Shown here in pieces: positions 44,655-46,061 of a stretch of 62,864 bases of DNA. A program made the translations under genes and the position numbers. Origin of the DNA: Candidatus Hydrogenedentota bacterium (GTDB lineage Bacteria > Hydrogenedentota > Hydrogenedentia > Hydrogenedentales > SLHB01); the NCBI GenBank assembly GCA_034408725.1, contig JAWXCN010000014.1:1-62864 (forward strand), in the 5' to 3' direction. Position 1 is the stretch's first letter. Every line of letters starts with the position of its first letter. The notes under the pieces are model-generated. The model had not been told where the DNA came from. It saw nothing but the letters and a program-made list of their open reading frames with translations, and did not search any database.

Positions 44655-44700
44655 AGAGCAGAAAGAGAAAGCGGGAAGCGCGTTAACGCCCCCCGCTTTC
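44655..44700 (-). terminator. Intrinsic terminator closing the micro-peptide array
   Basis: Minus strand GAAAGCGGG...CCCGCTTTC stem followed by TCTTTCTGCTCTCTTTT. Confidence 0.75.
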
Positions 44701-44719
44701 CAATGGCTGATCGATTGGG

Positions 44720-44785
44720 TTACACGACTTCAAGCAGAATGAAGAGCGCGATGATCCAGACGATCGGGTTTAACCACCAAAACAT
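44720..44785 (-). CDS. Trp-rich hydrophobic micro-peptide P6, MFWWLNPIVWIIALFILLEVV (21 aa)
   Basis: Hand-translated; ACGGAG-ATCTATT-ATG; paralog of P5. Confidence 0.78.
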   Translation of the reverse strand: MFWWLNPIVWIIALFILLEVV

Positions 44786-44839
44786 AATAGATCTCCGTAA
44801 TTGCTTTCAGCCTCGTTGAGGCTTCGTACAATCTTTCGA

Positions 44840-44893
44840 CTATACGACTTCAAGAAGGATGAAAATCAGGATGATCCACCAGATCCACCACAT
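44840..44893 (-). CDS. Trp-rich hydrophobic micro-peptide P5, MWWIWWIILIFILLEVV (17 aa)
   Basis: Hand-translated; ACGGAGG-TTCGGT-ATG; shares FILLEVV* with P6 through synonymous codons. Confidence 0.78.
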   Translation of the reverse strand: MWWIWWIILIFILLEVV

Positions 44894-45004
44894 ACCGAAC
44901 CTCCGTTCTTTCGTTTGGGCCCCTTAGGATGATCCAGCAATTGTTGACGCTGAATCAAAAGATTCGCAATAGGGAGCAGTCACTCCCCGTGCTTAGATCC
45001 GATA

Positions 45005-45070
45005 CTACAGAACTTGGGTCAGGAGAAGGATCAAGCCAATCCACAGATAAACCCAAAAATTGAAAATCAT
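45005..45070 (-). CDS. Hydrophobic micro-peptide P4, MIFNFWVYLWIGLILLLTQVL (21 aa)
   Basis: Hand-translated; ACGGAGG-AATACG-ATG. Confidence 0.75.
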   Translation of the reverse strand: MIFNFWVYLWIGLILLLTQVL

Positions 45071-45200
45071 CGTATTCCTCCGTTTCTCAGTTTTGCCCCA
45101 TCTTCACGATCCAGCGCGAGTGAGGTATCTCAATGTACTATCCCACGCACGAGCCGCTGCTCGCACACGTTAGCCAAGCTTCAAAAGAAAAATTGTTTGC

Positions 45201-45290
45201 TTAAAGCGCCTGGTAGAGAATGACCAAAAGCAGAATCCACCAAAGTGGGTTGAAAAGCCACCACCACGCCATCTTCGGCTCGCCCTTCAT
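45201..45290 (-). CDS. Trp-rich micro-peptide P3, MKGEPKMAWWWLFNPLWWILLLVILYQAL (29 aa)
   Basis: Hand-translated; AAGGAGG-ACGTTCGG-ATG; WWL(F)NP.(W)WI shared with P6. Confidence 0.75.
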   Translation of the reverse strand: MKGEPKMAWWWLFNPLWWILLLVILYQAL

Positions 45291-45387
45291 CCGAACGTCC
45301 TCCTTTTGAACTCTCTACCGTAACTTTGCCACCAATCGCGTTCCGGTTGCGATCAAGGCAAAAGTAGTTCCCCGGACAAGAAAAACG

Positions 45388-45417
45388 ATTGTAGCGGAAC
45401 AGACCAGTAAATTTCAA
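45388..45417 (-). promoter_or_regulatory. Sigma70-like promoter upstream of P3
   Basis: Minus strand TTGAAA-N18-TACAAT. Confidence 0.55.
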
Positions 45418-45537
45418 TACCCGATTATCCGCTAATCATCAGACTGTATCAGGGGGAACCCCAACCTATCGCTACAGTGGCAAGAATATACCACATATCC
45501 GGTGTGTATACAATGGTTTCTTGTATTCGTTACAGAT

Positions 45538-45560
45538 ATTATCGCGGTTACCGCGATAAT
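45538..45560. promoter_or_regulatory. Palindrome, possible operator
   Basis: ATTATCGCGG-TTA-CCGCGATAAT, 10-bp perfect arms. Confidence 0.45.
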
Positions 45561-45561
45561 T

Positions 45562-45600
45562 AAAAAAAGGATGGCGGGCTATTAACCCGCCATCAAAAAT
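45562..45600 (-). terminator. Intrinsic terminator after P2
   Basis: Minus strand GATGGCGGG-TTAATAG-CCCGCCATC followed by C and T7. Confidence 0.78.
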
Positions 45601-45622
45601 AATTCCTCGAAGGCGCCGGAGC

Positions 45623-45706
45623 TTAGGGCAGTACGTTAAGCCAACCACCCTGCGCGAAAACCACGAGGACATACCAAATCGGCCAAAACAACAACAACAA
45701 TAACAT
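45623..45706 (-). CDS. Hydrophobic micro-peptide P2, MLLLLLFWPIWYVLVVFAQGGWLNVLP (27 aa)
   Basis: Hand-translated; GAGGAG-AAAACGAA-ATG; terminator follows. Confidence 0.72.
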   Translation of the reverse strand: MLLLLLFWPIWYVLVVFAQGGWLNVLP

Positions 45707-45902
45707 TTCGTTTTCTCCTCTCGGTTTTAGAAACCGTTCTTTTCCCCTCGGAAACCCCATTCACAGTCTGTTCCGGACCGGGAGAAACAACGAAGCATTT
45801 CGTGCCTGCCTCTCCTTCCGCTTCCGAATAACTCCACTGGCGCGCCGGCGCGAAACCGGTATCGTCAATGTGGAGTCTTAAATCTGTGAAGAAACGGGAA
45901 TC

Positions 45903-45971
45903 TTAGAAAGGATACCAGGTCGAGTACAAAAGAACCCACAGAATCCACACAATCCAGAAGAAAATGAACAT
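45903..45971 (-). CDS. Trp/Phe-rich micro-peptide P1, MFIFFWIVWILWVLLYSTWYPF (22 aa)
   Basis: Hand-translated; AAAGGAGG-ATCTGTTGGT-ATG. Confidence 0.75.
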   Translation of the reverse strand: MFIFFWIVWILWVLLYSTWYPF

Positions 45972-46032
45972 ACCAACAGATCCTCCTTTCCACTTTCGGT
46001 TCGTTGCTCGCCCCCCATGGAGCTTGCGGAGG

Positions 46033-46061
46033 AGTATATCACAAGCCTTAGTCGGATACAA
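46033..46061 (-). promoter_or_regulatory. Sigma70-like promoter upstream of P1
   Basis: Minus strand TTGTAT-N17-TATACT with an extended -10 TG. Confidence 0.6.

Follow-up and report, generated by a model that had tools for sequence, protein, structure and literature searches.

Between glnA and a sulfatase gene on a 62,864-nucleotide (nt) stretch of Candidatus Hydrogenedentota DNA (contig JAWXCN010000014.1 of assembly GCA_034408725.1; hereafter the window), no open reading frame (ORF) exceeds 83 amino acids (aa), and the minus strand carries, from 44720 to 45971, six micro-ORFs for tryptophan (Trp)-rich peptides. Judged by comparison of orthologues, the six are conserved genes under purifying selection, and their products are very probably translated membrane micro-proteins. 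They fall into three peptide types, A, B and C, and stand in two transcription units, with a hairpin of almost invariant sequence between A and B; a fourth type, D, is encoded outside the window. We tentatively read the whole as a lineage-restricted, co-acting, non-toxin membrane micro-protein module, with a confidence that falls a little short of even. The family takes its place among the small hydrophobic proteins of bacteria, and is unusual in its composition, its multi-type cassette and its almost invariant RNA hairpin.

Six conserved micro-genes

A preliminary description of the window, made from its letters alone, had listed the six micro-ORFs, each with an ATG 6-10 nt after a GGAG(G) Shine-Dalgarno (SD) motif, and a reading of the sequence confirms both the coordinates and translations and the start signals, the distance from GGAG or GGAGG to ATG being 10 nt in P1, 8 nt in P2 and P3, 6 nt in P4 and P5, and 7 nt in P6. 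Relatives were sought among 135 genomes from 66 genera of the phylum Candidatus Hydrogenedentota, and all counts include the source genome; genera are labelled g1 (that of the source genome), g6 (the second genus), g9 (a genus with type A only) and g17 (that of genome G020). The six genes are as follows.

45903..45971, minus strand: P1, type A peptide, 22 aa, tail Y-x-x-x-Y-P-F; orthologues in 15 of the 135 phylum genomes; third-position bias
45623..45706, minus strand: P2, type B peptide, 27 aa, motif W-Y-x-L-x-V-F ... G-G-W-x-N; orthologues in 10 of the 135 phylum genomes; codon test
45201..45290, minus strand: P3, long form of the type C peptide, 29 aa including an MKGEPKM extension
45005..45070, minus strand: P4, type C peptide, 21 aa; 4 synonymous and 3 non-synonymous codon changes to the G003 orthologue
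44840..44893, minus strand: P5, type C peptide, 17 aa; 7 synonymous and 1 non-synonymous changes to the G001 orthologue; RNA-library contigs from three runs
44720..44785, minus strand: P6, type C peptide, 21 aa; 4 synonymous and 0 non-synonymous changes to the G003 orthologue

The composition of these peptides is unlike that of the proteome around them. At 17-29 aa, with a net charge of -1 to +1 and a grand average of hydropathy (GRAVY) of 0.77-2.35, P1 to P6 contain 4, 3, 5, 2, 4 and 3 Trp, respectively, and Trp accounts for 15.3% of the 137 residues in all, as compared with 1.44% in source-genome ORFs of at least 300 aa. When the 156,733 small ORFs (14-45 aa) of the 5.17-Mb genome were filtered strictly (ATG, SD, two or more Trp, and F, I, L, V, M, W or A in 70% or more of residues), six passed, five of them in the 1.3-kb array, where 2.5e-4 would be expected from their frequency elsewhere in the genome; the clustering of Trp-rich micro-ORFs in 1.3 kb is far beyond chance. 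P3 lies outside the filter solely through its charged N-terminal extension, its hydrophobic fraction being 20/29. Relaxed filters applied to control loci of other genera returned two matches of 12-14 aa in 21 loci, and none in 19 loci. Elsewhere in the source genome (contig C35:99387-99470, minus strand) there is an SD-preceded, Trp-rich ORF of 27 aa that overlaps an ORF of 173 aa, and is likely due to chance.

The micro-ORFs are taken to be genes because the differences between orthologues lie mostly at third positions and are mostly silent: seven orthologous pairs differ by 15 nucleotides at first, 10 at second and 57 at third codon positions (chi-square p = 2.6e-11), and their codon changes are synonymous in 47 cases and non-synonymous in 17. 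Profile searches find clustered matches in each of the four further g1 genomes and in a second genus, and the loci read in related genomes encode the same peptides, with an ATG and an AAGGAGG or GGAG before every ORF. The conservation of frames and SD sites in related genomes, proposed in the preliminary description as a check, is therefore borne out by both the profile searches and the orthologous loci.

Each type has its own signature. Type A (P1) invariably retains M1, F2, two Trp and the tail Y-x-x-x-Y-P-F; the invariant residues of type B (P2) are F-W ... W-Y-x-L-x-V-F ... G-W; and type C (P3-P6) follows the pattern W-W ... (N-P) ... W-W-I-L-L-V-I-L-Y-Q/E-V-L. Common to all is an aromatic N-terminal belt (F-W-W, in many cases with P or N-P next, and then W) together with a hydrophobic helix, and the C-terminal tails are specific to the type, namely Y-x-x-x-Y-P-F in A, G-G-W-N in B, L-Y-Q/E-V-L in C and V-G-G-G-x-x-L-P in D. 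Members of the family range from 17 to 45 residues, are rich in Trp and Phe, and are almost uncharged. An AlphaFold2 (AF2) model from a 16-row alignment of type C has a predicted local distance difference test (pLDDT) score of 79.7 and places helices at 5-12 and 15-31 (17 residues), broken at S/N-P. Structure prediction on four copies of a 32-aa C peptide scored 0.08 against a mark of 0.42, and speaks neither for nor against self-association. In profile comparison the match probabilities between types are 86% for A-B, 45% for B-C and 23% for A-C.

No named family accounts for these peptides in the databases searched, and the preliminary view of an undescribed family of small, almost uncharged, Trp-rich single helices stands. 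Pfam (E-value up to 10) offered no family for four of five peptides, and for P3 two sub-threshold matches, to Tmemb_185A (14.5 bits, cut-off 23.1) and FAM209 (E 8.3). NCBIfam matched none of five peptides and PADLOC (E up to 1) none of eight; PHROGs returned just two matches, both with E above 0.8; and there were no matches among PDB sequences and no usable match in the ESM Atlas. A profile search of 1,835,955,588 representative proteins gave two matches, both members of the family: a 29-aa call of P3 type, and an over-extended 85-aa call that ends in a C peptide. A search of the literature found no description of such a peptide family. Genes this small are left out of annotation, and it is comparative evidence alone that reveals a whole selected cassette here, in an uncultured phylum.

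RNA libraries point in the same direction. The window sequence itself is present in microbial-mat DNA runs, and three soil RNA-seq runs of one study contain contigs of 126-350 nt from a relative, 85-96% alike (letters and gaps counted) and at a word depth of 3-10. These lie at 44720-44938 (P6 and P5 with leader), 45205-45280 (P3), 45695-45828 and 45759-46005 (P1 with the hairpin); P6 is covered at full length by a contig of one run (X11), X12 reaching only its first bases. Two contigs have their first letter at 46003 and 46005, some 20 nt downstream of where the promoter would place the start, and three continue upstream of 44938 with unlike sequence, as expected for a polycistronic C unit with a different neighbour. 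The sole indel well within an ORF is of 3 nt and adds a Trp codon, and indels of 1-2 nt are confined to a start-codon boundary or to spacers. No contigs were seen on the flanks, but as these regions are poorly conserved and a relative supplied the contigs, their absence there is uninformative. To cover a 5-6-Mb genome 10-fold, DNA would have to fill about one-fifth of a library of 250 million letters, which makes RNA the likelier origin of the contigs. The cassette is thus probably expressed, to judge from these contigs.

Two transcription units and the hairpin between A and B

The DNA alignment resolves two sense-strand transcription units, A-B and C1-C4. The first runs from a promoter through a 5' hairpin, A, a variable hairpin, the almost invariant 54-nt hairpin and B to a terminator; the second has two tandem promoters, C1-C4 and a terminator. 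The earlier picture of one array of six was right as to a co-oriented set, but the single loose array gives way to types A, B and C in fixed order, divided between two operons and accompanied by an RNA hairpin. The order A, B, C(n) is kept in G000, G001, G004, G009, G113, G114 and G115, and also, at a different locus, in G020; the number of C copies varies from one to four across genomes, with two to four in genus g1 and three in genus g6. The signals are listed below.

46033..46061, minus strand: promoter of the A-B unit, TTGTAT, 17 nt, TG-n-TATACT (extended -10)
46010..46023, minus strand: 5' leader hairpin GCTCCATGGGGGGC, where the A mRNA starts or close by; a 5-bp hairpin by RNAalifold
45774..45827, minus strand: A-B intergenic hairpin, 54 nt, nearly invariant, with SD-like GGAAGGAGA in the 5' arm and UUUCUCCC in the 3' arm
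45560..45594, minus strand: intrinsic terminator of the A-B unit, 11 pairs and a T run
45485..45513, minus strand: second promoter, TTGTAT, 17 nt, TG-n-TATATT; a similar promoter at the matching relative place in 4 of 4 genomes, and also in G020
45388..45417, minus strand: third promoter, upstream of P3, TTGAAA, 18 nt, TACAAT
44666..44701, minus strand: intrinsic terminator of the C unit, 16 pairs; a similar hairpin after the last C gene in G003 and G020

Promoters were scanned for in four genomes, as sigma-70-like sites only. That of A-B occupies the same relative place in all four, and its letters are kept in seven of seven aligned arrays from two genera, as well as in G020. The third promoter recurs as TTGAAA or TTGAAT with TACAAT in three of the four genomes, and in weaker form (TTGCAA with TAAAGT) in G004. 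The 5' leader hairpin, single-copy in the source genome, is invariant in six of the seven aligned arrays and one G short in G114; G012 and G020 have different stem-loop sequences at its position. In genus g6 the stem of the A-B terminator is preserved by changes on both sides, from GGCGGG/CCCGCC to GGCGAAT/ATTCGCC. An Rfam scan of 44100-46300 (E up to 10) produced chance-level matches only.

The hairpin between A and B has a variable loop, but both of its arms are more conserved than the ORFs. Its 3' arm, GUUGUUUCUCCC (CUCC), is complementary not only to the SD-like 5' arm but also to the real SD of B, GGAGAA(A), and we infer that the hairpin serves, as a putative element, in the translational control of B. 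Its pattern occurs once per genome in 11 of the 135 phylum genomes, which span three genera, always between A and B, and the source genome likewise holds a single copy; a reversed control pattern gave no match. A metagenome scan with the pattern yielded two loci, one with the six peptides and neighbouring genes of the window, and the other with the layout of A, B and sulfatase seen in G003:C179. In G020 the upper stem is of other sequence, though by eye still able to pair. G004 (g1) and G111 and G112 (g6) share an A-to-U change in the 5' arm together with a GG-to-AA change in the 3' arm, which would reflect either a compensated shift in pairing register or an exchange between genera. A 23-aa ORF within the hairpin block, with ATG in G000 and G009, was rejected, as its start codon is absent from G001 and G004 and all of its codon positions are invariant.

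That a non-coding hairpin should be more conserved than the ORFs, and that the latter contain runs of UGG codons, could suggest a regulatory role, either as Trp-sensing leader peptides, or as transcripts that act as RNA and carry their ORFs incidentally. We consider this highly improbable, since there is no downstream target, each unit ending in a terminator and the next gene, glnA, being convergent, and since selection acts on the whole peptide including non-Trp tails such as Y-P-F.

The same hairpin bears on a second alternative, namely a type I toxin-like array of depolarising peptides, silenced by antisense RNA (in cis or trans) or by an anti-SD hairpin, and released under stress to impose growth arrest or persistence. 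Two features would suit such a locus: the conserved hairpin, whose CUCC arm is complementary both to the SD-like arm it pairs with and to the SD of B, and the copy number of C, which ranges from one to four. Type I toxins have been surveyed in selected sequenced genomes, with complete results for Proteobacteria and Firmicutes, using criteria that include fewer than 70 aa, one transmembrane stretch, tandem intergenic repeats, and a charged, polar or aromatic C-terminus (Fozo et al., 2010; PMC2887945). By these stated criteria the present peptides resemble toxins in size and hydrophobicity (17-29 aa, GRAVY 0.77-2.35 and a 17-residue helix in the AF2 model), and in tandem arrangement (six co-oriented ORFs in 1.3 kb of one intergenic region) (PMC2887945). 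Their tails are aromatic or polar (Y-x-x-x-Y-P-F, G-G-W-N, Y-Q/E-V-L), with at most one charge each.

Other evidence stands against repressed toxins. No antisense sigma-70-type promoter was found in three of the four genomes scanned, and the lone site in G004 is not conserved. SDs are no more occluded than those of ordinary genes, accessibility being 0.44 for 20 micro-ORFs and 0.42 for 200 controls (p = 0.81), and a general sequestration of micro-ORF SDs was accordingly rejected. A terminator-like site on the plus strand at 45722-45736, which could end an antisense RNA over P2, was also set aside, its hairpin not being kept in G004 and G009. Further, the strong consensus promoters and SDs, together with RNA-library contigs at depth 3-10, suggest ordinary expression; the peptides lack a charged C-terminal cluster; Pfam and NCBIfam place none of them in Hok, Ldr, Fst, Ibs, TisB, ShoB or other named toxin families; and distinct types are co-transcribed in fixed order. 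The toxin or defence role that the preliminary description had entertained thus finds no support in the promoter scan and SD accessibility and is somewhat disfavoured, and we rate a toxin-like array as rather unlikely. If the peptides were toxins after all, they would form a type I-like family with no detectable antisense partner.

Distribution, neighbourhood and the type D peptide

Peptide searches for C, B and D and the search with the hairpin pattern were run separately, and the full set is found in three genera (g1, g6 and g17). Type C was detected in 11 of the 135 genomes (5/5 in g1 and 6/6 in g6), type B in 10, and type A in 15, the last adding g9 (3/3) and g17 (1/1). As the C gene of G020 was missed by the C profile, profile misses do not establish absence in other genera. 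Genus g9 has A alone, with the family's type of promoter; at loci L076:2953-3027 (G012) and L077:3165-3239 (G117), the lone A is accompanied by the promoter, a different 5' hairpin and a B-type terminator, with no B ORF in between. From this layout, B may have decayed in g9. A conserved-pattern search with a six-row C alignment gave ten pattern matches and four confirmed loci, three of them in this lineage; the fourth, in a metagenome-assembled genome of Gemmatimonadaceae (L043), has no micro-ORF of the family's kind and was discarded.

The surroundings of the cassette vary more than the cassette itself. The preliminary description had proposed synteny downstream of glnA as a check, and such synteny proves not to be required: G003 has glnA beyond the sulfatase, and the cassette of G020 is at a locus unrelated to either gene. 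There, a single strand holds an HTH_17/MerR and receiver regulator, D, A, the hairpin, B, a promoter, C and a terminator, and the neighbours include a flavin mononucleotide (FMN)-binding protein, a response regulator and a kinase-like ORF, the kinase call being made by eye from the sequence. The sulfatase orthologue occurs in 31 of 54 genomes of the family, and no such peptides adjoin it in 19 loci of 17 other genera. Because no large neighbour is conserved across the three genomic contexts, the cassette looks autonomous.

By Pfam, the neighbours of the array in the window are P-II, GlnA, the sulfatase, a haloacid dehalogenase (HAD) hydrolase, a class-V aminotransferase and a major facilitator superfamily (MFS) protein. 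The absence of adjacent modification enzymes, as first described, is upheld by the Pfam scan of the neighbours, which showed no gene for a modification enzyme, an ABC exporter or a peptidase next to it. In the 540 nt that separate the C-unit terminator from glnA there are an 80-aa ORF (44216-44458, minus strand) and an 83-aa ORF (44248-44499, plus strand); they are probably not genes, the spacer being about 270 nt in G001 and poorly conserved. Downstream of the sulfatase, one strand (48331-53032, minus) encodes the HAD hydrolase, a pectate-lyase-like protein, the class-V aminotransferase and the MFS transporter, and the HAD and aminotransferase pair may correspond to phnX/phnW, a pair for 2-aminoethylphosphonate breakdown that it resembles.

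Neighbourhood also informs the possibility that the peptides are released from the cell, as a leaderless multi-peptide bacteriocin, a surfactant or a signal. Several leaderless small peptides per operon, each with its own SD, would be in keeping with release, and the staphylococcal psm-alpha operon likewise encodes leaderless peptides that each have their own SD. The Trp-rich composition is also shared with aureocin A53-like leaderless bacteriocins (PMC6131525). However, peptides of net charge -1 to +1 and GRAVY 0.77-2.35 would be too hydrophobic to exit the membrane unaided, and no ABC transporter or immunity gene adjoins the cassette in three genomic contexts. Leaderless multi-peptide bacteriocins are given as 30-34 aa, with a net charge of +2 to +5 and GRAVY of 0.15-0.7, from Firmicutes, and associated with transporter and immunity genes; as criteria for such a bacteriocin we took a cationic nature (net +2 to +7, pI above 10) and moderate hydrophobicity (GRAVY 0.15-0.7) (PMC6131525). 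Of the features described there, the cassette shares the several leaderless peptides per operon, and departs in charge and GRAVY and in the transporter and immunity genes (PMC6131525). We therefore consider release distinctly improbable.

Type D is a 35-aa peptide (F-W-P ... V-G-G-G ... L-P-N-L-I) encoded in the source genome at contig C279:4313-4420 (plus strand), outside the window, and also at L092:914-1021. In the source genome it has an SD and a terminator-like hairpin, and stands between the orthologue of the HTH_17/MerR and receiver response regulator of G020, which directly precedes it, and a convergent gene for an Fe-S/CCG protein. The arrangement of regulator and D is the same in g1 and g6, and in G020 D lies directly upstream of A. 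D is present in g1, g6 and g17 only, and was not found at 19 regulator loci of 15 other genera. As the regulator itself is widespread, occurring in 42 of the 54 family genomes, the link between D and the regulator may be only positional.

A proposed co-acting membrane set and its counterparts

The fixed order of several types points to co-action of the peptides, and we favour a multi-component membrane set over classical type I toxins because no conserved antisense promoter was found and the SDs are not unusually occluded. We infer the peptides to be ordinary constituents of the membrane, not toxins kept under repression. They would insert into the cytoplasmic membrane of the producer, perhaps with the N-terminus in and the C-terminus out, as the two Lys of the long C form suggest, and would act jointly as a set of one A, one B, a variable dose of C, and D. 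The set could assemble as a small hetero-oligomeric proteolipid, or its members could serve as accessory helices on a larger membrane complex, and the A-B hairpin may set the translation of B relative to that of A. A more specific proposal is that D, A, B and C form a Trp-belted hetero-oligomeric proteolipid, as a minimal channel or membrane scaffold, with its stoichiometry set in cis by the hairpin. This we consider unlikely; if true, it would represent a membrane assembly and a translational control element with no described counterpart.

Several observations weigh against a co-acting, non-toxin set. The promoter scan is blind to antisense promoters of other than sigma-70 type, and an SD-mimic or anti-SD hairpin, tandem duplication and very small size are also traits of type I toxin loci. 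The RNA contigs come from one study and from a relative rather than the source organism, and give no indication of strand or level. The structure of a hairpin as invariant as that between A and B is beyond proof by covariation, the informative pairs being only A-U/G-U switches and one pair being broken in G004. Finally, paralogy of types A, B and C is plausible, and the weak profile matches between them may reflect composition alone.

Interest in a co-acting membrane set lies partly in its chemistry, given 15% Trp, almost no charge, and some peptides of just 17 residues. It also offers a test case for cooperation among very short helices in a membrane, and for the tuning of translation within an operon by an SD-mimic hairpin. 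Among known systems, the cassette is like those of aureocin A70, garvicin KS and the cereucins in having three to four related leaderless peptides per operon in conserved gene order, but its peptides are uncharged, far more hydrophobic and shorter than those described for these bacteriocins (PMC6131525). It is like the E. coli loci for Ibs/Sib and Ldr/Rdl, as the toxin survey presents them, in its tiny hydrophobic single-helix peptides, unannotated and in intergenic tandem repeats, and in its structured RNA near an SD (PMC2887945). Unlike those loci, it has no conserved antisense promoter and its SDs are accessible, and it comprises three to four conserved types in fixed order, co-transcribed, with 15% Trp and no charged cluster.

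Single helices of 20-40 aa that pack on membrane proteins include KdpF, CydX, AcrZ and MgtS, as well as PetG, PetL, PetM and PetN of the cytochrome b6f complex, in which several different small helices serve one complex. Genes for accessory subunits of the KdpF or CydX type usually lie in the operon of their partner or occur singly; unlike subunits of the KdpF, CydX or PetG type, the peptides described here are encoded in an autonomous cassette of putative paralogues, with no conserved large neighbour and no Pfam match. A likeness in sequence design is also seen in the WALP peptides, which are synthetic and have a core of Leu, Ile or Val with Trp at both ends, anchoring at the membrane interface. 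The present family shares a Trp-flanked hydrophobic core with WALP but, unlike it, has its Trp concentrated at the N-terminal end, with a conserved Y-Q/E-V-L or Y-P-F tail at the opposite end.

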